A stretch of 17,850 bases of DNA from a virus. Taxonomy: Duplodnaviria; Heunggongvirae; Uroviricota; Caudoviricetes. Shown in pieces: positions 3,912-17,003 of the stretch; the stretch's first letter is position 1, and each line of letters opens with the position of its first letter. The notes beneath the pieces were generated by a model that was not told where the DNA came from, searched no databases, and saw only the letters and a program-made list of their open reading frames with translations. The stretch lies in the IMG/VR virus record IMGVR_UViG_2654587568_000021. One strand, written 5' to 3'. The position numbers and the translations under genes are program-made.

Positions 3912-4086
3912 GCCAACAGGAACACCACAACCTCAAAAACGCTACAAAGATGCCCACGGAGCACTCGTTACTGTCGAAAGCGTGTCTCACAACCGAGTGA
4001 CGTTTTATCGCGACGGGTATCAATCGCCATGCGTACAACCGCTGGCGCGCTTCATGAAGGAGTTCGCGGAGGTTAACAAATGCTAA
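3904..4086 (+). CDS. Small hypothetical protein, 60 aa (MSKPTGTPQPQKRYKDAHGALVTVES...)
   Basis: ATG at 3904 overlaps the stop of the upstream gene (ATGTCTAA). Start chosen inside the longer ORF-track frame 3817..4086. Confidence 0.45.
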   Translation: MSKPTGTPQPQKRYKDAHGALVTVESVSHNRVTFYRDGYQSPCVQPLARFMKEFAEVNKC

Positions 4087-4741
4087 CCGTCCAGAAGAAG
4101 ATATTTTCACTGGCTGGTATGTCACCAAAATCCAGCAATATGACAGCAAAGTCTGGCATTAATACAGCAGATACAAGCAAAGTTTATCATTTTCTGGTGG
4201 TAGGAGCGGATGCCTTAACTATGTCAGAAATTACGGTCGATGGTGTTAGCGTTGAGAAGGTCAGCGGCTGCGCCAGAGAATTTCTGGTCGTAGATGGCTT
4301 TCTCTGCTCGCGTAGTGACTCCACAAAAACCTTCGTCCATACGCGCGACGTTAACGAAATGAGCGCGATGTATTGTGCATCTGGTGCTTCCAATACTGAG
4401 TTTTCGGAGTCCATAAAAAAGAGCTTGCCGTTATGCGGCAACACGGTTTATGGTTATAAGGCACCTCATAAAACGGGTGCCGGGATTGGCGTCCTGAAAA
4501 TTCTGAAGGCGACATATGACGCGCCGAGCGTCTTTTTTTATGTCGTAGGTCTGACTCACCCATTTTTTGGGCGTTGGTGTATAATCCAGCGCCTTTGTCA
4601 ATCAATGGTGGCTCAGGCGGGGGCTTCTTCGGAAGCGCCGGTATCCTTCAGAGCCGGTTACGCCAACCCTGTCTGGGCTACCACCAGCGAAATTGGCGTT
4701 TCCGGTGGTAGCGTAACCTGCTATCTGAAGGAGGCTGCCAC
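4080..4741 (+). CDS. Uncertain ORF: frame stays open from an ATG at 4080 (overlapping the upstream stop) through to 5147, crossing a terminator-like hairpin, a promoter and the Icd-like gene; the part shown here may be a real gene, a fused or frameshifted remnant, or non-coding
   Basis: ATGCTAA start/stop overlap at 4080-4086 suggests coupling. An open frame of about 220 codons before the Icd-like start is unlikely by chance, but the translated composition is not convincing and regulatory signals lie inside it. Confidence 0.25.
4518..4539 (+). terminator. Candidate rho-independent terminator (GACGC-loop-GCGTC followed by T7)
   Basis: 5-bp GC-rich stem at 4518-4522 / 4528-4532, then TTTTTTT at 4533-4539. 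Confidence 0.35.
4550..4590 (+). promoter_or_regulatory. Candidate sigma70 promoter with perfect -10 TATAAT (4580-4585) preceded by TG; weak -35
   Basis: gtgTATAATcc at 4577-4587. Lies about 155 nt upstream of the Icd-like gene. Confidence 0.4.
4590..4735 (+). ncRNA. Candidate C4/IsrK-like antisense RNA leader upstream of the Icd-like gene (position-based hypothesis)
   Basis: In P1-type immunity regions a C4 RNA lies between the promoter and icd. Here a promoter-to-icd leader of about 150 nt occupies the same position. No structure or homology was verified. Confidence 0.25.
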
Positions 4742-4936
4742 ATGCTGGCTACTACCCCTACCCAAAAACCGCAATTTATCTGGATTATCGCCGCAGTTCG
4801 CCGCGATTGCCCGACAATTACCGCCAAAATTCATCATATTGCTGCCGAGTCTGAACGCGATGCTCGCCGTTCTCTGGTGCGCGATCACGTCTGCTTTTTT
4901 GCTGGTCGTATCCGCATGGAGGTGGCACATGATTAA
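4742..4936 (+). CDS. Host cell division inhibitor Icd-like protein, 64 aa
   Basis: Strong RBS AAGGAGG 7 nt upstream. Sequence FIWIIAAVRRD...IHHIAAESERDARRSLVRDHVCFFAGRI fits the Icd-like pattern I recall (FxWxxAAxxR ... SE.xARRxL ... FAxR). Confidence 0.7.
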   Translation: MLATTPTQKPQFIWIIAAVRRDCPTITAKIHHIAAESERDARRSLVRDHVCFFAGRIRMEVAHD

Positions 4937-5147
4937 AACCTACGATGTGCATATGGATCCCCTCGAACGCACAAGCCAGATCATCACACTGACAGAAGTG
5001 ATTAACGACATTCTGGTGAGCAACTCTCCCTCACGAGACGAAAGGCTGAAGGCGTTACTCGCGATATTGGATCTCGCCGTTCGTGACGTTCATTTCCTGC
5101 TGGAAGGTGGACAAATGCCAGGAAAAACGGGGGCAACCAATGAATAA
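4929..5147 (+). CDS. Small hypothetical protein, 72 aa (MIKTYDVHMDPLERTSQIITL...)
   Basis: ATG overlaps the Icd-like stop (ATGATTAA), with GGAGG upstream. This is the C-terminal part of the long open frame 4080..5147. Confidence 0.5.
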   Translation: MIKTYDVHMDPLERTSQIITLTEVINDILVSNSPSRDERLKALLAILDLAVRDVHFLLEGGQMPGKTGATNE

Positions 5148-6419: not shown

Positions 6420-9176
6420 ATGCGAAACATTGATCTTATCCGTCAGGTTATCAGTGCGTCTGAAAACAACTGGCCTCATGTGCTGGGCTGCCTGAACATA
6501 AATGTCCCTGACTCTCCGCGCCGTCATGCTCCCTGCCCTGCATGTGGGGGCAAAGATCGATTCCGGTTCGATGACAACGGGCGCGGTAGCTTCATCTGTA
6601 ATCAGTGCGGCGCTGGTGATGGGCTGGATTTAATTAAACGCGTAAATAACTGCGACACAACAGAGGCGGCGCTTCTTGCCGCTGATGTTCTGGGTATTGA
6701 TTACCGGACAACGGAAACACCAGAAGCCACCAGCCAGAAACGGGAACAACTGGAAACCGAGCGCCAGCGACGCGAACAGGAGCGCCTGAAAAGGGCAGAG
6801 AAGGACGAACAACAAAGACGGGATACGTTTTCCCGTCAGTTTGATGACATGCGCAGAAAGGCTGTAAACGGCAAATCTGATTATCTGGTTGCGAAAGGGG
6901 TAGGTGATTTTACATTCCCCGTGTTGCCCGATGGATCTCTGTTGCTGGCGCTGGTGGATAAATCCGGCGCAGTCACAGCAGCACAGACTATTACCTCACA
7001 TGGTGAAAAAAGACTCCTGACAGGTTCAGCAAAGCGAGGGGCATATCACGCCATAAACGCACCAGAAACAACACAGAGCATCTTAATCGCAGAAGGGCTG
7101 GCAACGGCATTATCTGCCCATTTAATTCGTTCAGAAGCGCTGACAGTGGCGGCGATTGATGCCGGGAACCTGTTATATGTCGCCCAGGTACTGCGGGATA
7201 AATTTCCTTCAGCACAAATCATCATTGCTGCGGATAACGACCACAGCGAAGGAAGACAAAACACGGGGAGAATAGCAGCAGAAAAAGCAGCTTTATCTGT
7301 TTCTGGATGGGTGGCATTACCCCCGACAGATCACAAAGCAGACTGGAATGATTACCACCAAAAACACGGCATTAAATGCGCCACAGAAGCGTTCAATAAG
7401 TCAATGTACCAACCACAGGGTAATGGCGTGAAACAGGAGCCACAGACCATTGAGGGAAGCGATTTTAAGGTTATGGATACCGACCCACTGAAACCAAGAA
7501 TAGAAAGCCGCGAGGATGGTATTTATTGGGTATCTCCGAGAGCTGACAGCCAGAGTGGAGAAATCATCAATAACGAAAGCTGGTTATGTTCTCCTTTAAG
7601 CGTTATCGGTACTGGCAGAGACGATAAAGACCAGTATCTCATTCTTCGCTGGCTGTCGTTTGGTTCTGAAACGCCGACAACCGCTGCCATTCCACTGGCT
7701 GATATTGGTGAACGTGAAGGATGGCGCACACTTAAAGCTGGTGGGGTAAATGTCACGACCAAAAGCAGCCTCAGAGCAATACTGGCAGACTGGCTACAAC
7801 GCAGTGGCTCTCGTGAATTGTGGCGTGTTGCTCATGCCACTGGCTGGCAATGCGGAGCGTACATCATGTCTGATGGGGAAATCATCGGAACACCTGAAAA
7901 TCCTGTGCTGTTCAGCGGGAGAAGCTCAGCCGCAGCCGGATATACCGTCTCAGGGAGCGCGAAAAGCTGGCGTGATAACGTGGCGCGTCTGGCCTTTGGT
8001 AACTATTCAATGATGACCGGGATCGGCGCAGCACTGGCAGCGCCATTGATTGGGCTGGTGGGCGCTGACGGGTTCGGTATTCATTTCTATGAGCAGTCGA
8101 GCGCAGGTAAGACCACCACGGCAAACGTGGCGAGCAGCTTATACGGCAACCCTGATTTACTGCGGCTGACGTGGTACGGAACCGCGCTGGGGCTGGCAAA
8201 TGAAGCCGCCGCCCACAATGACGGACTAATGCCGCTTGATGAAGTTGGTCAGGGCGCTGATCCTGTCAGTGTTTCACAGTCTGCCTATGCGTTATTTAAC
8301 GGTGTAGGGAAACTGCAAGGCGCTAAAGATGGTGGAAACCGGGATCTAAAACGCTGGCGTACAGTGGCAATCAGCACCGGAGAAATGGATTTAGAAACAT
8401 TTATCGCTACTTCCGGGCGAAAAACCAAAGCCGGGCAACTGGTGCGACTGCTGAATATTCCGTTGAGTAAAGCAGTACGCTTTCACGATTACCAGAACGG
8501 AAAACAGCACGCAGACGCACTGAAAGACGCTTACCAGCATCACCACGGCGCAGCCGGGCGTGAGTGGATTAAATGGCTGGCAGACCACCAGCAACAGGCT
8601 ATTAAAACTGTTCGTGACTGCGAAAGCAGATGGAGAAGCCTGATCCCATCCGATTATGGTGAGCAGGTTCACCGTGTAGCCGCGCGATTTGCCATTCTGG
8701 AGGCCGCATTGCTGTTAGGCGAGGTTGTAACAGGCTGGGATGCTCAGACATGCCGTGATGCGATACAGCACAGCTATAACGCATGGTTGCGCGAGTTCGG
8801 CACAGGTAACAAAGAGCATCAGCAGATTATTGAACAAACGGAGGCATTTCTTAATGCCTATGGGCTTAGCCGTTTTGCACCATTTCCATACAGCCCGGCA
8901 GATTTGCCCATCAAAGATTTAGCCGGATACCGTCAGCGTGGAGAACATGACGAAAGCCCAATGATTTTCTACACATTCCCGGCCACATTTGAAAAGGAGA
9001 TCGCATGTGGTTTCAACGCAAAACAGTTTGCTGAAGTGTTGAAAAAAGCCGGGATGCTAACCCCACCAAACAGCGGTCGTGGATACCAAAGAAAATCACC
9101 ACGTATTCAGGGACGACAAATAAACGTTTATGTACTCAATTACCAGCCAGGAGATTATAACTCATCCGAAGAATGA
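6420..9176 (+). CDS. P4 alpha-like DNA primase-helicase, 918 aa: N-terminal zinc ribbon, Toprim domain, C-terminal P-loop NTPase
   Basis: CPACGG...CNQCG zinc-binding motif. Toprim signatures IAEG and DNDH. Walker A SSAGKTTT and Walker B-like LMPLDEVGQG. Confidence 0.9.
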   Translation: MRNIDLIRQVISASENNWPHVLGCLNINVPDSPRRHAPCPACGGKDRFRFDDNGRGSFICNQCGAGDGLDLIKRVNNCDTTEAALLAADVLGIDYRTTETPEATSQKREQLETERQRREQERLKRAEKDEQQRRDTFSRQFDDMRRKAVNGKSDYLVAKGVGDFTFPVLPDGSLLLALVDKSGAVTAAQTITSHGEKRLLTGSAKRGAYHAINAPETTQSILIAEGLATALSAHLIRSEALTVAAIDAGNLLYVAQVLRDKFPSAQIIIAADNDHSEGRQNTGRIAAEKAALSVSGWVALPPTDHKADWNDYHQKHGIKCATEAFNKSMYQPQGNGVKQEPQTIEGSDFKVMDTDPLKPRIESREDGIYWVSPRADSQSGEIINNESWLCSPLSVIGTGRDDKDQYLILRWLSFGSETPTTAAIPLADIGEREGWRTLKAGGVNVTTKSSLRAILADWLQRSGSRELWRVAHATGWQCGAYIMSDGEIIGTPENPVLFSGRSSAAAGYTVSGSAKSWRDNVARLAFGNYSMMTGIGAALAAPLIGLVGADGFGIHFYEQSSAGKTTTANVASSLYGNPDLLRLTWYGTALGLANEAAAHNDGLMPLDEVGQGADPVSVSQSAYALFNGVGKLQGAKDGGNRDLKRWRTVAISTGEMDLETFIATSGRKTKAGQLVRLLNIPLSKAVRFHDYQNGKQHADALKDAYQHHHGAAGREWIKWLADHQQQAIKTVRDCESRWRSLIPSDYGEQVHRVAARFAILEAALLLGEVVTGWDAQTCRDAIQHSYNAWLREFGTGNKEHQQIIEQTEAFLNAYGLSRFAPFPYSPADLPIKDLAGYRQRGEHDESPMIFYTFPATFEKEIACGFNAKQFAEVLKKAGMLTPPNSGRGYQRKSPRIQGRQINVYVLNYQPGDYNSSEE

Positions 9177-9201
9177 GCTTCTTCATGTGCGTAGAAAAGG
9201 T

Positions 9202-9313
9202 GTTGGTTCAGTTGGTTCAGTTGGTTAAATTTGTAAAGAGTGTTGTTTTATAAGGATTTTATTCTTTTTATTGAACCAACACCGAACCAACAACACGGTA
9301 TTTTGAACCAACA
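9202..9313. repeat. Iteron cluster, candidate replication origin: three tandem GTTGGTTCA repeats, an AT-rich spacer, then three inverted TGAACCAAC copies
   Basis: Direct copies at 9202-9210, 9211-9219 and 9220-9228 (third degenerate). Inverted copies at 9272-9280, 9283-9291 and 9305-9313. Begins 26 bp after the primase stop. Confidence 0.6.
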
Positions 9314-9633
9314 CAATGTGACTGAATTGATGCGCACAACACCTGGCTGGCATCAGAGAGTGTTTTACGAGACTTTCGTAAAATCCTGTGTACAAGGGCG
9401 TGACGTTTTTGAAAGTGAGCACTACGAAATTTTCGTAGTTCAGAAAACAGCCCCTGAGAAGTTGTTATGCCTGTTCAGCAAACCATCCGCATAGCTGATC
9501 GCGAATCAAATTACCAATGGAGCCAGAAGCAAGGGCAGAACTGAAAAGCGCCTGCCGTGAAGAGTAATGCGACACCATAAATATAGTTTTTAGAGTCCAT
9601 AAAAAACCTGTCAAAACCTGACACACAGAACGA

Positions 9634-9665
9634 TGCTACCAGCTACTGAGCGGTGGCATTTTTTT
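9634..9665 (+). terminator. Candidate rho-independent terminator closing the int-primase gene block
   Basis: UGCUACC / GGUGGCA stem with one G-U wobble and an 11-nt loop, followed by T7 at 9659-9665. Confidence 0.35.
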
Positions 9666-9721
9666 GTGCTATTTGTTTCATATTTTGCAATCACAATGAT
9701 GAATGTTGCGTTTTATGAAAC

Positions 9722-9745
9722 TATAATGACTGTTGTTTTATACAG
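9722..9745 (+). promoter_or_regulatory. Perfect -10 hexamer TATAAT (9722-9727) immediately followed by a LexA-box-like motif CTGT-N8-ACAG (9730-9745); candidate SOS-regulated promoter of the cargo operon
   Basis: Sequence gaCTGTtgttttatACAGtt compared with the LexA consensus TACTGTATATATATACAGTA. AT-rich N8 spacer. The box sits between the -10 and the RBS at 9751. The -35 is weak. Confidence 0.45.
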
Positions 9746-9760
9746 TTCTAAGGGGGCGTT

Positions 9761-9934
9761 ATGGCTATTTCAGTAAAGCCAGTATTGATAAGTGAGAAGC
9801 AAATGGAAGCGATAAAGAAAATTCAGGAGGAGCAGCGTAAAAAATCAGAGGTAGGAGTTGCGCCAACGATCCACGAAATTGCTCGGGGATTAATGGATAA
9901 GGCGCTGGCTTACACTTTAACTGGACGTGGGTAA
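9761..9934 (+). CDS. Small hypothetical protein, 57 aa, first gene of the cargo operon (below the 60-aa ORF-track cutoff)
   Basis: RBS AGGGGG at 9751-9756, ATG at 9761, TAA at 9932-9934; translated by hand as MAISVKPVLISEKQMEAIKKIQEEQRKKSEVGVAPTIHEIARGLMDKALAYTLTGRG. Confidence 0.5.
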   Translation: MAISVKPVLISEKQMEAIKKIQEEQRKKSEVGVAPTIHEIARGLMDKALAYTLTGRG

Positions 9935-9938
9935 ATCA

Positions 9939-11405
9939 ATGGCTACGTGGCAACAGGGTATTAATTCTGGTGGTTTTCTGGCTGGCATTGGTGCGCAAAA
10001 CGAGAATGCGCCAAAGGCAAGCGACATTAACGCAACGCTTGGTCTGATCCGCGAAAACAATGAACTGGCTCGCTCAGGTGCAAATAACGTTGCTCTGACA
10101 GGTCTTCGTGGTCTGGCTGGCGTTGCTGATATTTATAAGCAGCAGCAACAGCAGGAGCGTAAAGCGGCATTCCAGAAAGGTTATGCAGATGCTTATGCGT
10201 CCGGTGACAGGGAGCAGATGCGTAATCTTATTACAGCATTCCCAGAAGAGTTTGAGGAAGTCCGTAAAGGGATGAGTTATGTCGATGATGCTCAAAGGGA
10301 TGATTATGGCAATCTGGCGCTCAAAGCACAGGTAGCCTCATCGCTTGGTCAGGGCGCATTTGGCAGGTTCATGATGGATAATGAGCAGGAGATGCGTCGT
10401 TTAGGTATCCCTCCAGAAACTATTGCTGAAATGCAGGTTAATGACCCGCAGGGCTTCCAGCATTTCGCAGGTAATCTGGCGCTGTTTTCTCTCGGTCATG
10501 AGAAGTATTTCGATATCAAAGATCAAATGGAAGGTCGGGATATTGAGCGTGGCAAGTTGGCAGAGACAATCCGCAGCAATCAGGCTGGCGAAGCACTTCA
10601 GGCGAGAGGGCAGGATATTAGCCGAGCAAATGCGTTAACGTCAGCATATGCACCAACAGCAGCAATGCAGAATTACAATCAGTACGCGCAAATGTTAAAG
10701 GCGGATCCAGAGGGGGCGGCGGCATTTGCGGCAGCGGCTGGAATTAATACAAACGCCAAAAAATTAATGAGTGTTAGAGAAAACGATGATGGCACTGTCA
10801 CAAAATACTACACAGACGGAAGTGAAGAGCAGGGAAAACTAAACCAGCCAATATCTGGAGATGGGTTTCGTCCAATAGCTTTGCCAACAGCCCAAAAGAT
10901 CATGGAAAAGTCGCCAGAAGGGGCTAAAAAAGCTGCTGGATTTGCATACAGGGTTAGGGATGCTCTTGATTCAATAGATACACTGAAAGACCAGCTTAGC
11001 CCACAGCGAGTGGCGATCATTAATAATGCTTTGGGTAATGGGACGCTGGCTAACTTAACGCTCAGCCCAGCAGAGCAGCAATACGTTGTTAATGCTAATG
11101 ACGCAATAATGGCAATACTCCGTCAGGAAACAGGGGCATCTATCCTACCAGCTGAAATGTCCAAATATTATCAAATGTATTTCCCTCAGCCTGGTGATTC
11201 CACAAAAACCATTGATACCAAGCGCCGGAAGATGGAAAACCAGTTCAATTCGCTGAAAGCTGCTTCTGGTCGAACTTATGATGCTTTGCGGGTTATTTCA
11301 GCAGTTGACAGAGGAACTGCTTCTTCGTCGCAGACATTGCCGCAATCTGAGCAGGTATCACAGCCAGCAGCCAGCAGTAACTTTTCTTCACTATGGGGTG
11401 ATTAA
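9939..11405 (+). CDS. Large hypothetical protein, about 488 aa, Ala/Gln/Gly-rich; no family recognised. An alternative GTG start at 9927 gives the 492-aa ORF-track version
   Basis: Long intact ORF with an ATG 4 nt after the upstream stop. Stop overlaps the next start (TAATG). Confidence 0.8.
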   Translation: MATWQQGINSGGFLAGIGAQNENAPKASDINATLGLIRENNELARSGANNVALTGLRGLAGVADIYKQQQQQERKAAFQKGYADAYASGDREQMRNLITAFPEEFEEVRKGMSYVDDAQRDDYGNLALKAQVASSLGQGAFGRFMMDNEQEMRRLGIPPETIAEMQVNDPQGFQHFAGNLALFSLGHEKYFDIKDQMEGRDIERGKLAETIRSNQAGEALQARGQDISRANALTSAYAPTAAMQNYNQYAQMLKADPEGAAAFAAAAGINTNAKKLMSVRENDDGTVTKYYTDGSEEQGKLNQPISGDGFRPIALPTAQKIMEKSPEGAKKAAGFAYRVRDALDSIDTLKDQLSPQRVAIINNALGNGTLANLTLSPAEQQYVVNANDAIMAILRQETGASILPAEMSKYYQMYFPQPGDSTKTIDTKRRKMENQFNSLKAASGRTYDALRVISAVDRGTASSSQTLPQSEQVSQPAASSNFSSLWGD

Positions 11406-13510
11406 TGGCTAAAGCATGGAAAGATGTTATCGCCTCTCCACAGTATCAGGCGTTAGCACCAGAACAAAAAGCGCAGGCTCAGGAGCAATACTTCAATGAA
11501 GTCGTGGCCCCGCAAGCCGGAGAAAGTGTAGAGCAGGCTAAGCAGGCTTTTTATGCTGCCTATCCACTACCATCAACGAATGAAATAGACCGATCCCAAT
11601 CAGCAACTCAAAATATTCAACATACATCATCTGATAATTCTCTTGCGTCAGGGTATGCAAAGTTAGCTACTCAGCAAAGAGAGGGGCTTGAGCGTTCAGC
11701 AGAACAGGGAGCCAGTCTTGGGGCTGCGATGCGCGATGCTATAACAGGCGAAAGCCGAATGACTCCAGAGATGGAGAGACTGCAAAATGTCGCCTCTGCC
11801 CCAGAATTGAACTCACTAAGCATGGATGCCCTAAAGGCTGGATGGTCTCAACTTTTCGGCTCTGACGCGTCTCAGGAAAAGATTCTTCAGGGAATGGGGG
11901 CGACATTAAGGCAGGATGAGAAGGGGAATACTATCGTTTCTCTGCCATCAGGTGATTATGCCCTGAACAAGCCGGGTTTATCACCGCAAGACCTGACCTC
12001 GTTTCTTGCTAATGCGTTGGCGTTTACACCAGCGGGCAGGGCTGGAACGGTGCTTGGTGCCATAGGAAAATCAGCAGCTACAGATTTAGCACTACAGGGA
12101 GCCACCAGCCTTGCTGGTGGAGAAGATATTGATCCGTTACAAACGGTAATTTCTGCTGGCATTGGTGGTATTGGTAAGGGGCTGGAAAATACAGCGAGTG
12201 CGGTTTCGAGGGCTGTTCGTGGTGATATGTCGCCTGAAGCAAAGGCTGCTGTCGACTTTGCATCGGAAAGAAATCTGCCGTTAATGACCAGTGACATGCT
12301 GAAAGATAAAACCTTTATGCAGAGTCAGGCTCAGACATTAGGCGAAAGAGTTCCTTTTTTTGGAACCGGTAAGAATCGGCTGAATCAACAACAAGCACGA
12401 GAAAATTTAGTCAGAACATTTAGCGATGGTCTGGGTGGCATTTCTGATAAACAGCTTTATGAATCTGCGACTAAAGGGCAACAAAAATTCATTGAGGCAG
12501 CAGGAAAGCGATATAACCGCATAATTGACGCTATGGGGGATACCCCTGTCGATCTCTCAAACACGGTAAAAGCTATCGACAATCAGATTGCCGTGTTAAG
12601 CCGCCCGGGCAAATCTCAGGATAGAGCCGCGGTAAAAGTCTTGCAGCAATTTAAAGACGATATCACCAGCGGACCAAATGACCTGCGTCTGGCGAGGGAA
12701 AACAGAACCGATCTTCGAAAGCGATTTATGGCGTCATCTGACACTGTTGATAAAGATACGCTCCAGAAAGCCAGCGATATTATCTACAAGGCATATACGG
12801 CGGATATGAAAAAAGCCGTAGCCAAAAATCTTGGAGCAGACGAAGCCATTAATATGGCAAGGGTTGATCGCTCATGGTCTAAATTCAATGACATGATGGG
12901 AAGAACGCGCGTTCAAAAGGCAATAGCCAGCGGCAAGGCCACGCCTGAGGATGTAACAAAACTCGTTTTTAGCCAAAGCCCATCAGAACGTTCTCAGCTT
13001 TACAGGCTTCTGGATGACAATGGTAGGCAAAACGCACGAGCAGCCATAGTTCAGAATGCTGTAGATAAGGCGACTGATCCGTCTGGAAATATCAGTGTTG
13101 AGAAGTTTATTAATGCGTTACACCGGAACAGGAAGCAATCAGCAACTTTCTTTAAAGGCGTACATGGAAAGGAACTGGACGGCGTTATTAAATACCTCAA
13201 CGATACAAGACACGCGGCAAAAGCGAACGTTCAAAACTTAAATGGTCAGCAGCTTTATGGATTGTTAGTTGGTGGTGGCATCATAAACGCAGCAGTATTA
13301 GCGGGGATGCTAAAAACGGCTGCGTTTGTTGTTCCTGCTGCTGGTGCCGTAGGCGGAGCAGCGAAGGCATACGAAAGCCCTGTTATACGAAATGCCTTGT
13401 TACGTCTGGCAAATACGCCAAAAGGTAGCACAGCATATGACAGAGCGATCAGTACGGTCACACAATCGCTCACCAGAGTCGCACAGGCATCACAAAAAGA
13501 AGCTCAATAA
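11405..13510 (+). CDS. Large hypothetical protein, 701 aa, with a C-terminal Gly/Ala-rich hydrophobic segment (LYGLLVGGGIINAAVLAGMLKTAAFVVPAAGAVGGAA); function unknown
   Basis: Long intact ORF coupled to the upstream gene and followed by a terminator hairpin. No enzymatic motif recognised. Confidence 0.85.
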   Translation: MAKAWKDVIASPQYQALAPEQKAQAQEQYFNEVVAPQAGESVEQAKQAFYAAYPLPSTNEIDRSQSATQNIQHTSSDNSLASGYAKLATQQREGLERSAEQGASLGAAMRDAITGESRMTPEMERLQNVASAPELNSLSMDALKAGWSQLFGSDASQEKILQGMGATLRQDEKGNTIVSLPSGDYALNKPGLSPQDLTSFLANALAFTPAGRAGTVLGAIGKSAATDLALQGATSLAGGEDIDPLQTVISAGIGGIGKGLENTASAVSRAVRGDMSPEAKAAVDFASERNLPLMTSDMLKDKTFMQSQAQTLGERVPFFGTGKNRLNQQQARENLVRTFSDGLGGISDKQLYESATKGQQKFIEAAGKRYNRIIDAMGDTPVDLSNTVKAIDNQIAVLSRPGKSQDRAAVKVLQQFKDDITSGPNDLRLARENRTDLRKRFMASSDTVDKDTLQKASDIIYKAYTADMKKAVAKNLGADEAINMARVDRSWSKFNDMMGRTRVQKAIASGKATPEDVTKLVFSQSPSERSQLYRLLDDNGRQNARAAIVQNAVDKATDPSGNISVEKFINALHRNRKQSATFFKGVHGKELDGVIKYLNDTRHAAKANVQNLNGQQLYGLLVGGGIINAAVLAGMLKTAAFVVPAAGAVGGAAKAYESPVIRNALLRLANTPKGSTAYDRAISTVTQSLTRVAQASQKEAQ

Positions 13511-13514
13511 CTGG

Positions 13515-13537
13515 TTAGCCATGGATGGCTAATTTTT
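13515..13537 (+). terminator. Rho-independent terminator of the cargo operon
   Basis: Stem TTAGCCA / TGGCTAA with loop TGGA, then TTTTT. The stop codon of the convergent - strand gene (13529-13531) lies inside the 3' arm. Confidence 0.5.
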
Positions 13538-13948
13538 GTTCTTTGCTCTCATCCATAGGTAAAGAAGGGAAAGAACAAGGCAAAAAACAGAGAATAGATA
13601 ACCTACCTCATATGGTGCGCCAAAAAAATTAGCTATTGATACGGGCAAAAAAGCTGAGGCGATCAAAATTGAAAGGCAAAAAATAAGCCCAGTAATATAG
13701 TTTATTAAATTCTTAAATGAGAAACGTTTTGCTTGATTTACGGTCTTAACGAACGATCGCTTAACGACGGATAAAAGCAAATAGATGGCGACAGTTGCTA
13801 ATGCCCCTTTCCACCAGTCTGGATATAGTTTTGCGACAATCAGACCAAGGAAAACCATGATGACAGCCTGAGCATTCACACCAACCCTCCCTTTAGCTTT
13901 GTTTAGAATGGCAATCATCATATATCCAAGACATGGCATTTGGTACAT
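13529..13948 (-). CDS. Small integral membrane protein, 139 aa, about 4 predicted TM helices, AT-rich, convergent with the 701-aa gene
   Basis: Four hydrophobic stretches of 15-25 residues read by eye. One 60-nt sample (13621-13680) is about 37% GC, below the roughly 50% flank. No clear SD, so the start codon is uncertain. Confidence 0.6.
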   Translation of the reverse strand: MYQMPCLGYMMIAILNKAKGRVGVNAQAVIMVFLGLIVAKLYPDWWKGALATVAIYLLLSVVKRSFVKTVNQAKRFSFKNLINYITGLIFCLSILIASAFLPVSIANFFGAPYEVGYLFSVFCLVLSLLYLWMRAKNKN

Positions 13949-13994
13949 AGCTTGGGTCGGGATTTCAAATCCGATCCCCGTTGATGGGGCCGTT

Positions 13995-14376
13995 ACAGTA
14001 CGCGCATATCCGCTTTATGTGAAACAGGAAGATTTTTCTGATATCACTGCCACAGCAAAACACCAATTTCGTGACCAGTACGCGCGCGAGGGGTATCAGT
14101 TGCAAAATTTTTTGCAACTGCGTCCGACCAGTACGCACACGATGGCGGGGGATACCATGAAACTGTTCTCTACACGAGACAGAGTGGTGGTGATGTGTTG
14201 ATTATCGGCGTATATGCGCACAGGACGCGCTATGACGATGTTTTATGCGGGTACACCAATCACATGTATCTGATGTGATAAATCGCGTTACATGACCTCT
14301 CTGTTGTGCTGGTGGTTATCACGACGTTCTGAATCTGGCCTTTGCCTGGTATTTTGCGACAAGTACGCGCGCGTAG
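13995..14376. repeat. Four direct copies of a (G)ACCAGTACGCRCRCG-like motif plus an 11-bp inverted repeat with 2-bp spacer (14097-14120) in a non-coding region
   Basis: Copies at 13995-14006, 14073-14090, 14126-14140 and 14358-14376. Palindrome CAGTTGCAAAA-tt-TTTTGCAACTG. Confidence 0.4.
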
Positions 14377-14921
14377 CATCGAAATAATCGGATGGCGTAT
14401 GCTGCTGGTAATATGAAGACCGATAGCATTAACCGTAAGGAGAAAGACTTCTCGATAACGGCAAGATCGCGGCAAGGGGGCTGAATTGCGAGGCGAGATT
14501 AAGCAACTGTCTTGAACGTAAAAATCATGGAGCAACATGATGGTACGATTCATTCCATTCTTCGTTCTTTCTGAGTATTGCGTTCAGGCTTAGTCAAAAT
14601 TAGTGTTGCGAGCGGACCTATTAGTAATTGTTAGTGCGATGCGCCTGTTATGGATTGTTATGGTTGTGGCAGGCCTGATTAATATCCAGTATGACCACCA
14701 GCTATGAGAGGCCACCTCAGTGGTTCGCAGTTGCAGGTTTGCACTCAGGTTCGCAGGGTTTTGGCTACTTTCACGTGCGAACCTGCAGAATTGCAAAGGA
14801 CAACTAAGTCCTCTGGCCAACTCCCGGTTTATGAGCGACACAGTCCGCCTGGCGCATCGTTTTCGTCGAGTGCGCCCATCAGCTTGTCCATGGACTATCC
14901 ACCACTCGATATTAAAGCTAA

Positions 14922-15107
14922 TCATTGGTTGCCAGCCCGCGAATCAAGTTTGTTCTGGATCCAAGCTTCAACCTCCTCAAGCGACCATCTAGCTGATCTA
15001 CCAATTTTAACTGGCTGTGGAAACGTGCCCGTCTTAACCCATGAGTAGATTGCCGTTTTCTTGAAGCCCGTTCTGAGCATAACTTCGCTTAATTTGATAA
15101 GGCGCAT
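14922..15107 (-). CDS. alpA: Second AlpA-family regulator, 61 aa, on the - strand
   Basis: MRLIKLSEVMLRTGFKKTAIYSWVKTGTFPQPVKIGRSARWSLEEVEAWI is a typical AlpA HTH as I recall it. AGGAG RBS on the - strand upstream of the ATG. Confidence 0.85.
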   Translation of the reverse strand: MRLIKLSEVMLRTGFKKTAIYSWVKTGTFPQPVKIGRSARWSLEEVEAWIQNKLDSRAGNQ

Positions 15108-15155
15108 AGAGGCTCCTCTGCTTTAGATTAAGCATAGTGACAATCTGGCTTTGGC

Positions 15156-15190
15156 GGTATCCAAAAGCGAGGTATCCATGTTGGTATCCA
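15156..15190. promoter_or_regulatory. Three direct GGTATCCA repeats in the divergent intergenic region between alpA(-) and the 63-aa gene(+)
   Basis: Copies at 15156-15163, 15171-15178 and 15183-15190. A perfect TATAAT at 15328-15333 precedes the + strand small gene. Confidence 0.3.
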
Positions 15191-15358
15191 CCAAAACGCT
15201 GTTTACCAAAAAAGTTACCACCGGAACAGGACATTTTGAGCTGTAACTTAACACATAGCATATGGAGTTCACGCATAGACTTCACGCACAACGGCTCCGG
15301 CCAGTGAAGAATCACCCTGGCTGGCAATATAATGCCGATCACCATCAGAGGGGGATCC

Positions 15359-15550
15359 ATGACACCACGAGAAATCGAGCTGCTGACCATTGCCAAGCTG
15401 GAGCATGACGGCCACCAGCTCAGCCCGGCAGAACTGCGGGAATTAAGGCGCCAGCTGGCAGAGGGCCCTGTAATAGCCAGGCGGTACCGCGAAATGATGA
15501 CCAGCCCCGCATATCGCTGGAGCAAACCAGCGCCGCTCCGTGCGCGGTGA
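15359..15550 (+). CDS. Small hypothetical protein, 63 aa (MTPREIELLTIAKLEHDGHQLSPAELRELRRQLAEG...)
   Basis: GAGGGGG RBS then ATG at 15359. An alternative upstream ATG at 15332 has no RBS. Confidence 0.45.
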   Translation: MTPREIELLTIAKLEHDGHQLSPAELRELRRQLAEGPVIARRYREMMTSPAYRWSKPAPLRAR

Positions 15551-15624
15551 GCAGCACCTAACCAGCACTAGACAAGCCCTGTGCTGGTGGATGTCCCTCA
15601 TAATTAGCGGTTTTTAAACAGCGT

Positions 15625-15745
15625 GTTGGTTCACGGCCTCTTTTTGTTGGTTCAAAAATGGGGTGTGTTGGTTCACTTTTTGCGAATAATTCTTTTAAAA
15701 ACAATACTCTTTACAAATTGAACCAACTGAACCAACTGAACCAAC
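15625..15745. repeat. Second iteron cluster, the reverse-complement copy of 9202-9313: three spaced GTTGGTTCA, an AT-rich spacer, then three tandem TGAACCAAC
   Basis: Direct copies at 15625-15633, 15646-15654 and 15667-15675. Tandem inverted copies at 15719-15727, 15728-15736 and 15737-15745. The reverse complement of 15711-15750 is near-identical to 9193-9232. Confidence 0.6.
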
Positions 15746-15781
15746 ACCTTTTTGCTTATCTATATAGTCTGAGAGGCAGAA

Positions 15782-16069
15782 ATGATAAGGGACAGGAAAG
15801 CTGAAGATCTGGAGTCAAAAGGGCTATACCGGAGAGCTGCCGCACGATGGGCAGAAATCATGATGCTGGCAGATGGCGATAAAGAACGTGAACATGCAGC
15901 AAACAGACGCTCTGAATGTATCCGTAAGGCGGCACGCCAACCAGCAACTACAGACAGATTCGGAGATTTAAGACAGGCAGTTAAGCGAACTCATTCGGCT
16001 CTTGGTATGGATGAGGAAGCGAGAGGGTACTTCAGGCGTTATCGCGATAAAGATTGCCAGAGACAGTAA
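15782..16069 (+). CDS. PerC-family transcriptional regulator-like protein, 95 aa
   Basis: GAGAGG RBS. The segment LESKGLYRRAAARWAEIM resembles the conserved PerC/Pch motif as I recall it. Confidence 0.6.
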   Translation: MIRDRKAEDLESKGLYRRAAARWAEIMMLADGDKEREHAANRRSECIRKAARQPATTDRFGDLRQAVKRTHSALGMDEEARGYFRRYRDKDCQRQ

Positions 16070-16206
16070 TGCTCTCTCTGTTTTGGCAAATTACCCCTCA
16101 CTTTGAAGGGATCGGAGCTATAAAAATGGTGTTATCCGGCTTCCTCAAATTGAGGTTTCCGAAAATATCAGCGGGTTAGCGATTAATCTGGCGAGTAATT
16201 AAACTG

Positions 16207-16386
16207 CGAAAATTTCGTAGGGGGTTACGAAAATTTCGTAGGTCTACTCATGGTTTAGGCTTACTTTCCCGACATCCCCCAATGGGTGGGGGCGAAATAA
16301 TCAATGGGTTAGGCTTACCTCCCCCATTTCCTGCATTGCAGGTTTTCGAAAGAATCAATGGGTTAGGTCATCGTGCAAATTTGCAC
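16207..16386. repeat. Non-coding array of phased direct repeats and palindromes: CGAAAATTTCGTAGG x2, TCAATGGGTTAGGCTTAC-like x3 at 53-54 bp spacing, GTGCAAATTTGCAC palindrome
   Basis: Copies at 16207-16221 and 16228-16242; 16248-16264, 16301-16318 and 16354-16370. Palindromes at 16330-16342 and 16373-16386. Confidence 0.45.
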
Positions 16387-17003
16387 TCTGACAGCCAACG
16401 CAATTTCTCGTTGGCGGAAATATCAGGTATTTACTGAACGAACGGTCTACCCGCCTGTTCAACTACCAGTTGTACATGGCTGCTTTATGTGCAAATGGTG
16501 GTGAGAGAAAATTGTTTGGGGGTACTTTTGGGGGTATCTTCAAAGATGTAATTGGAAAATATCTTTATATATCAATGTATTTTTATTGTTTGTTTTGTTC
16601 CTATTATCGCACCACTTAAATCAATAAGTTACACATCATTAATACCTTCCTTATTTTTTGATTGGGACAGATTTGGGACCGATGGGTTCAGGATCGAATC
16701 TATTTACCGTGCGTGTTCGGTAAGGTGATTAGGTGCGAGGTGAGCATATCGACGAACCATTTCGAGAGTTTCCCATCCGCTCATTTTTAAGTGCAAGCAG
16801 GGAAACACCGGACTAAACCTATCAGCTGTTCGAAAATGGCAAGCGGATTAATATGCCATGGCGGCTTTGAGCCGCACGCATGGGGTGTGGCAAGCCTGAT
16901 GGATGTTGCTGTGCTTGTGGTGGCGTGTTTGCTGGTCTGGTTGTTGGTTAATCGCGAAAATCATTATGCCTGAGGAATACCACAGGACGTTCAGGTTTTG
17001 CAT

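Follow-up and report, generated by a model that had tools for sequence, protein, structure and literature searches.

Mirror-image iteron clusters bracketing the cargo of an EcCI042-type island as candidate halves of one replication origin

Why would an integrated satellite carry an origin-like iteron cluster directly after its primase gene and a second, inverted cluster of the same kind several kilobases away, on the far side of its cargo? The question is raised by a 17,850-nucleotide stretch of DNA (IMG/VR virus record IMGVR_UViG_2654587568_000021; Caudoviricetes), which is referred to at its full length as the window and contains what appears to be an integrated Gram-negative phage-inducible chromosomal island (PICI) of the EcCI042 type, with int, alpA, perC, and a gene (pri-rep) for a Toprim/DUF927 primase-helicase, Pri-Rep (or Rep). 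The original prediction, made from the letters of the window alone, had described two inverted clusters of a 9-bp iteron, 6.3 kb apart and bracketing the cargo, and this description is borne out. What it lacked is suggested by the comparison of related islands, according to which the two clusters would be halves of a single origin, undivided in relatives and here holding the cargo inside it. It is rather likely that clusters A and B form a split bipartite PICI origin of this kind, with both halves serving as Rep-loading sites.

Anatomy of the two iteron clusters

The 17.85-kb window holds 11 copies of the 8-mer GTTGGTTC, where 0.52 are expected and 200 shuffles yielded three at most, and all 11 are confined to clusters A and B (Table 1). 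The two clusters, termed the proximal half (H1, cluster A) and the distal half (H2, cluster B), mirror each other in architecture: in each, three 9-bp iterons in tandem (GTTGGTTCA) make up a tight set, next to it lies a 45-bp spacer with 80–82% A+T, and three iterons in the inverted orientation form a spaced set. The tight sets (T1 and T2) are outermost and the spaced sets (S1 and S2) point toward the cargo, with each cluster forming an inverted-repeat unit of its own; the third iteron of T1, at position 9220, departs from the consensus by a single mismatch. A repeat search of the window returned two inverted arms of 65 nt each (9195–9259 and 15688–15752), 91% complementary and 6428 nt apart, with a 10-bp indel in the remainder of the alignment, in agreement with the near-identical arms and diverged, indel-bearing remainder that had been proposed.

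The first iteron of cluster A is found 26 bp past the stop codon of pri-rep (9176), and the architecture of the cluster beside the primase gene is that expected of a PICI-type origin, which is consistent with the earlier suggestion that it looks like one. H2, unlike H1, lies 6.4 kb downstream of pri-rep. No sigma-70 promoters or terminators were detected within H1 or H2, the hairpin at 13513–13534 being the sole site of note, and Rfam gave no match in or near either cluster, the Rfam matches of the window lying elsewhere.

Compact and split arrangements in related islands

Iterons were mapped in 77 loci encoding relatives of the primase, with one genome taken per species. In related islands from ∼40 species, four iteron sets recur together right after the primase gene in a shared order: T1 (9-bp spacing), a spacer, S1 (inverted, 11/21-bp spacing), a central gap, S2 (spaced), a second spacer, and T2 (opposite in orientation to T1); the T1-to-S1 distance is 53 bp and the S2-to-T2 distance 44–85 bp. 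The compact form is a mirror-symmetric array of ∼290 bp directly after the primase gene, and the central gap is 43 bp in five loci (L003, L004, L023, L039, and L044) and 45 bp in a sixth (L032). The gap measures 42, 66, and 169 bp in L049, L035, and L048, respectively, 411 bp in L041, 954 bp in L061, and 2121 bp in L059, and reaches 4.6–8.9 kb in the window, in Escherichia coli 042 and E. coli ABU 83972, and in islands of Lonsdalea, Rosenbergiella, Chimaeribacter, Pantoea, Serratia, Leclercia, and Cedecea; in a Citrobacter island (L062), where T2 was detected only in part, it is 7651 bp. The halves are 0.17–8.9 kb apart in 15 islands, with the gap filled by unrelated cargo, and 12 islands from eight genera have gaps of 0.95–8.9 kb. 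Because the same four sets are contiguous in relatives and differ in the central gap, clusters A and B appear to be halves of one origin, at whose center of symmetry a variable accessory module would sit in the window, in EcCI042, and in other islands. The compact state was seen only in genera other than that of E. coli, and a search for a cargo-free allele of the window backbone found the synthetic H1–H2 junction in none of 552 matching E. coli genomes.

Just inside S1, at the left edge of the cargo, lies the motif CTGGCTGG, which follows S1 in 9 of 14 split loci, compared with 0.23 expected per 120 bp. It is an origin-center motif in most iteron classes, including the compact origins of other classes (examples besides the window are L003, L008, L015, L021, and L046), and stays with H1. 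A second copy resembling a target-site duplication was searched for at the right edge of the cargo and was not found. As the motif includes CTG, the trinucleotide recognized by DnaG-type primases, it could, speculatively, be a priming site for the Toprim domain.

Eight iteron classes were found directly downstream of the primases (GAACCAAC, GAGACAAC, TAACCCGW, GAACCGAC/AAACCGAC, TACCCGAC, TAACCCAC, GGGATAAG, and TGTTCACC), and in all six with a located second module (GAACCAAC, GAGACAAC, TAACCCGW, GAACCGAC, TAACCCAC, and GGGATAAG) the iteron of S2/T2 is that of T1/S1. The halves of the split loci L041 and L062 still match, with iterons other than GAACCAAC, and a seventh class, TACCCGAC (L046), has the same layout in the raw sequence. 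In an alignment of 47 primases, the ratio of between-class to within-class identity is lowest at residues 841–900 (0.68 versus 0.8–1.0 elsewhere), and within this region residues ∼880–895 of the Rep tail change with the iteron class, reading QRKS-PRI with GAACCAAC and QGRV--RE with GAGACAAC in an otherwise near-identical tail. These putative iteron-recognition residues are coded near 9057–9104 in the window. Residues 403–813 of Pri-Rep match the Rep encoded by pathogenicity islands of Staphylococcus aureus (SaPIs) in sequence (structure 8tch), and in an AlphaFold model of residues 760–918 (predicted local distance difference test score, 84) the predicted fold of the tail is a winged helix nearest to the SaPI Rep structure; the homologues found for this C-terminal domain were mostly gene fragments and served solely as the alignment for structure prediction.

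A chimeric primase was observed in Rahnella woolbedingensis (L067, 9992–12730), with an N terminus of the window's PICI family (61% identity) and a C terminus like that of the P4 alpha protein (D5_N, DUF5906, and Pox_D5), followed by P4 type I iterons (TGTTCACC). Initiator module and iterons appear to have been swapped together in this island.

In the split-origin reading, Pri-Rep would bind both H1 and H2, H1 would be a working origin, and H2 would be either a second initiation site or a cis-acting helper resembling the crr site of P4; Rep bound at T2 may also affect the adjacent perC and leftward genes. The iteron columns of 10 split islands have a pairwise identity of 97% in H1 and 86% in H2, compared with 64 and 66%, respectively, for the non-iteron columns inside the units. 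An AT-rich spacer (73–89% A+T, mostly 45 bp) is found in 15 of 15 separated distal halves and in 12 of 23 compact ones, and separation seems to be tolerated only where each half has an unwinding element of its own.

Cluster B might instead be a leftover, whether the origin of a decayed island of opposite orientation, a recent functionless inverted duplication, or the end of a site-specifically inverting segment. The 91% identity of the 65-nt arms in the window island and the second AlpA-like gene beside H2, on the minus strand, speak for such a leftover, but there is no second integrase or primase in the island and H2 adjoins H1 in L049, L035, and L048. Moreover, all H2 units compared (split islands, eight genera) have in common a 21/21 spacing, a 10-bp ACAACCCCNTTT insert between the S2 iterons, and an AAAAAGT before S2, all lacking in H1, and the likeness of H1 to H2 within the same island (0.57–0.72) is no higher than that between different islands (mean 0.65). 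Since its specific features cross genera and its likeness to the H1 of its own island is not elevated, H2 is an old module and no recent copy. An invertible cassette of the Hin/Gin/Cin type was rejected after its inversion junction was searched for in 5426 E. coli genomes, of which 498 carried either half and none the synthetic inverted junction; Pfam and PHROGs scans of the main cargo open reading frames (ORFs) found no invertase or recombinase. A leftover is therefore extremely improbable, and with it fall the second, decayed element and the invertible cassette of the original prediction, H2 being old, conserved, situated beside H1 in relatives, and changing its iteron jointly with H1.

A function other than initiation deserves more weight. 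H2 might be no origin but a site of control by Rep binding, either an operator tying perC and the leftward cargo to Rep levels or a locus for titration or handcuffing that holds copy number down, as do the iteron loci incA in plasmid P1 and incC in plasmid F. This would suit the location of H2 in the 256 bp from which the 163-aa leftward ORF and perC diverge, the flank conserved in several iteron classes as a link from T2 to the gene downstream, and the islands that apparently manage with H1 alone. It would also suit 11 compact origins in which the second spacer is 36 bp long and GC-rich (AT 0.31–0.42), making melting unlikely, and because of which the ancestral role of S2/T2 was possibly auxiliary. 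However, H2 and its immediate surroundings gave no sigma-70 consensus promoter, perC does not always adjoin T2, and every separated H2 retains its spacer of 73–89% A+T at the same distance as in H1, for which a pure operator or titration site would have no need. A control site in place of an origin half is considered unlikely.

Recombination offers a further explanation, in which H1 and H2 are mainly flanking homology through which co-resident islands swap cargo and H2 has no role in replication; the mirror pair would be maintained because it favors this exchange. The primase genes of different islands align at ∼70% identity over most of their length, with H1–H2 intervals that have essentially no sequence relationship, the primases of L020 and L025 are 87% identical with only 20% of the cargo alignable, and E. 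coli islands whose primases are 99% identical diverge in the right part of their cargo, all of which such swapping would produce. Recombination needs no specific iteron, however, and would leave unexplained the matching of H2 to H1 in six classes, the conservation of the iteron columns, and the retention of the AT-rich spacer. The likeness of H1 to H2, no higher within than between islands, indicates in addition that homogenization of the halves is infrequent. An exclusively recombinational role for H2 is thus very unlikely.

Several observations nevertheless count against the split-origin reading. The difference in AT-rich spacers between separated and compact distal halves is significant by Fisher's test (p = 0.002), but the loci are phylogenetically related, and their independence is overstated by this value. 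In nine relatives (L013, L022, L027, L028, L031, L038, L040, L043, and L051) H1 alone was found within 10 kb downstream, so that H2 is either non-universal or farther away. The perC gene directly follows S1, and not T2, in L012, L020, and L025, as well as in two islands that yielded no H2 (L022 and L027), and a simple picture of cargo entering a compact origin is therefore incomplete. A possible mismatch is seen in Serratia oryzae (L056), where an origin with GGGATAAG iterons (11784–12052) is accompanied ∼6 kb downstream by a weak GAACCAAC-like cluster (17871–17977), which may be a mismatched distal half left by recombination of cargo or backbone.

A distant primase homologue (29% identity) in Oceanospirillum (L068) is flanked by two inverted clusters of seven GTGTGTA repeats (7658–7741 and 20006–20089), 12.3 kb apart; a remote lineage may here have an analogous arrangement.

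The island, its cargo, and their significance

Table 1. Positions in the window of the iteron clusters, their parts, and the neighboring features
Feature	Position	Strand	Details
pri-rep	6420–9176	+	918 aa; Zn-ribbon, Toprim primase, DUF927 helicase, predicted C-terminal winged-helix tail
Cluster A (proximal half, H1)	9202–9312		
T1, tight set at outer edge of H1	9202–9228		Tandem 9-mers GTTGGTTCA, GTTGGTTCA, GTTGGTTAA starting at 9202, 9211, 9220
H1 AT-rich spacer	9229–9272		44–45 bp, 82% A+T; putative DNA-unwinding element
S1, spaced set of H1	9273–9312		Three GAACCAAC iterons opposite to T1, starting at 9273, 9284, 9305; spacing 11/21 bp
CTGGCTGG motif	9343–9350	+	∼30 bp inside S1; cargo starts beyond it
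TACGAAAATTTCGTA, 15-bp palindrome, four copies	9366–9380, 9423–9437, 16205–16219, 16226–16240		
Rightward cargo unit	9927–13510	+	P22 gp20 homologue (9927–11405) and gp16 homologue (11405–13510); PHROG 917 and 770; Pfam Inj_translocase 1e-83
Hairpin terminator	13513–13534		At junction of the convergent cargo units
Leftward cargo unit	13529–15525	-	Runs away from H2; small ORFs of 163, 61, 111, 97, 139 aa
Cluster B (distal half, H2)	15625–15745		
S2, spaced set of H2	15625–15674		Mirror of S1; + strand copies at 15625, 15646, 15667; spacing 21/21 bp
H2 AT-rich spacer	15675–15719		45 bp, 80% A+T; second putative unwinding element
T2, tight set at outer edge of H2	15720–15745		Three tandem iterons opposite to T1, at 15720, 15729, 15738
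T2 flank ACCTTTTTGCTTATCTATATA	15746–15772	+	Leads to perC; comparable flanks follow T2 in other iteron classes
perC-family regulator gene	15782–16069	+	Directly outside H2; Pfam PerC 3e-32
attR (approximate right island end)	16597–16613		11-nt match to tRNA-Thr 3' end; homology to ABU 83972 island ceases ∼16608

The island is ∼16.8 kb in size and codes for an integrase, DUF6387, AlpA, AntA, an "Ash" ORF, and the primase-helicase, followed by the gp20 and gp16 homologues, five small leftward ORFs, and perC, which begins 37 bp after T2. The same island is located at tRNA-Thr in E. coli ABU 83972, and because homology to it ceases at the match to the 3' end of this tRNA gene, both clusters and perC lie within the island. 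A near-identical island with both clusters is found between yicC and dinD in E. coli 042; this is presumably the EcCI042 that is listed as a Gram-negative PICI by Fillol-Salom et al. 2018 (PMC6092414).

The cargo of the window consists of two convergent transcription units, each beginning beside an origin half. The leftward unit, whose 61-aa ORF encodes an AlpA/excisionase-like helix-turn-helix, differs in E. coli ABU 83972. A stretch of ∼1.1 kb coding for a DUF2824 protein and a gp7-like protein, which E. coli 042, E. coli ABU 83972, and Escherichia sp. MOD1-EC7003 (L002) have, is missing before the rightward unit (window 9500–9927 compared with 11762–13072 of L001); as the gp20 homologue is, in addition, only ∼80% identical, the ejection cassette of the window is a shortened variant.

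Although the cargo varies from island to island, its large proteins, wherever annotatable, are phage DNA-delivery or tail-tip proteins. They include P22 gp20/gp16 (to which E. coli 042 adds the DUF2824 and gp7-like proteins), 584–600-aa SLT-domain proteins, tape-measure proteins, and Dit/baseplate hub/gpV spike proteins, and are coded at 9927–13510 in the window, 11940–16598 in L001, 14445–16247 in L019, 16258–18012 in L060, 14632–18042 in L020, 16198–18912 in L054, and 12999–16122 in L034. Some large cargo proteins (L012 and L025) have no Pfam match. Literature searches found no PICIs or satellites with ejection, tape-measure, or helper-type-specific injection proteins.

A bolder form of the split-origin reading places the cargo slot within the origin by design, with two mirror-image Rep-loading units that fire inward or loop together, so that the cargo would be copied first and amplified most upon helper induction. 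This is quite unlikely on present evidence. If true, it would amount to a replication-coupled dosage switch for satellite cargo, in which the convergent transcription of the cargo would be co-directional with the incoming forks and the delivery proteins would be matched to the virion type of the helper, and it would explain why cargo turnover is concentrated at the center of the origin.

Several features outside the two clusters were also noted. The palindrome TACGAAAATTTCGTA gives eight strand-hits in the window (0.47 expected), with one pair of copies just inside the left edge of the cargo and the other beyond perC, and its copies are probably operators for some regulator; clusters of similar TGCGAA/TACGCA-type motifs occur downstream of the origins of related islands. 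GGGGGTA-type repeats near both island ends (window 16517–16537 and L082 3198–3218) are probably arm-type integrase binding sites. Rfam matches at gathering score are an isrK RNA (67.8 bits, 4461–4538) and a C4 antisense RNA (79.9 bits, 4601–4688), both within the 355-aa "Ash family" ORF (4080–5147), which may be over-called; a PICI-type island here has an immunity RNA module like that of P4/P1. An int-alpA RNA is located at 1276–1343.

The PICI origin was known before as a single iteron block around an AT-rich region by rep, and the cargo hotspot by pri had been noted separately; what is new is that the hotspot would lie inside the origin, between conserved mirror halves that track initiator specificity, in a widespread enterobacterial PICI lineage. 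The positions of H1 and H2 therefore provide exact boundaries for the pri-adjacent accessory slot described by He et al. 2024 (PMC11364771), and as precise landmarks for its ends they should be useful in annotating and mining satellite cargo. Origins whose halves lie anywhere from 0 to 9 kb apart form a natural series, which is material for determining how far apart initiator-binding arrays can work, a question raised by P4 ori/crr, and the covariation of Rep tail and iteron is a candidate specificity code connecting the two. Satellites of this lineage that carry their own ejection, tape-measure, or baseplate proteins are a further lead.

Comparison with known systems

In the PICI/SaPI family, the winged helix of Rep binds the iterons, the AT-rich center is melted, and the helicase loads itself. 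The window resembles these origins in the placement of H1 directly 3' of pri-rep, in the three-plus-three opposed iterons around an AT-rich spacer in each of H1 and H2 (at least two per side being expected of such an origin), and in an initiator with a helicase core related to SaPI Rep and a predicted winged-helix C terminus, the SaPI Rep itself having a C-terminal domain of this fold (PMC9371898). The backbone of int, alpA, pri-rep, and perC is likewise that of Gram-negative PICIs. In the text available from the published descriptions (PMC6092414 and PMC9371898), the PICI origin is one unit, two iteron sets around an AT-rich region, whereas the window has two mirror-image units kilobases apart with a variable accessory region between them; a search of the literature found no description of a split or mirror-image PICI origin. 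The island also departs from the usual definition of a PICI (∼10–15 kb, without phage structural or lysis genes) in its genes for gp20- and gp16-like virion ejection proteins, alongside the int, alpA, pri-rep, and attR at tRNA-Thr that it has.

Experimental proof that a rep-ori segment drives autonomous replication exists only for EcCICFT073 (PMC6092414), whose primase is of a different, unrelated type. The iteron of this validated origin is TGTCTACC, and inverted tight pairs, 190 bp from each other, mark its two ends. Because this origin is bounded in the same manner, mirror symmetry may be common among Gram-negative PICI origins. The accessory region of the window adjoins pri, as it does in the PICIs of He et al. 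(PMC11364771), in the searched text of which the slot is defined by gene position, as a site for defense genes (Tai), and is not described as bounded by two origin halves; the cargo of the window, in contrast, comprises phage DNA-delivery proteins and no known defense genes.

The original prediction had likened the two clusters to the ori/crr pair of P4, and this resemblance holds in logic, though not to the point of membership in the P4 family. Both P4 ori and crr are required in cis. As in P4, two arrays, predicted to serve the same initiator, lie several kilobases apart, one of them directly 3' of the primase gene (the position of crr, directly 3' of alpha, in the GenBank annotation NC_001609), and the units of crr likewise have a tight pair, 9 bp apart, which a 43-bp spacer separates from a spaced set. 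Alpha and Pri-Rep are homologous in their N-terminal Zn-ribbon/Toprim primase parts (33% identity, E = 1e-41). The helicase of the window, however, is a DUF927 helicase related to SaPI Rep, with no D5_N/DUF5906 and no Pox_D5 DNA-binding domain; the P4 type I iteron is TGTTCACC, found among the relatives only in the chimeric L067, versus GTTGGTTCA in the window; and H2 is one inverted unit, in contrast to crr with its two direct 120-bp repeats. Membership in the P4 ori/crr family is ruled out by these differences in iteron sequence, helicase and DNA-binding domains, and crr structure. The order of roles in P4, moreover, has the primase-proximal site as the helper (crr) and the distal site as ori. 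By analogy, the split origin would resemble P4 ori/crr in its working while standing outside that family.

Plasmids P1 (incC/incA) and F (incB/incC) also carry a second array of initiator iterons away from the origin array, so that other genes are bracketed by the two. The gene flanked by the plasmid arrays is rep, and no unwinding element accompanies the second array; in the window, by contrast, it is the cargo that is flanked, and the second array has the full make-up of an origin-like unit.

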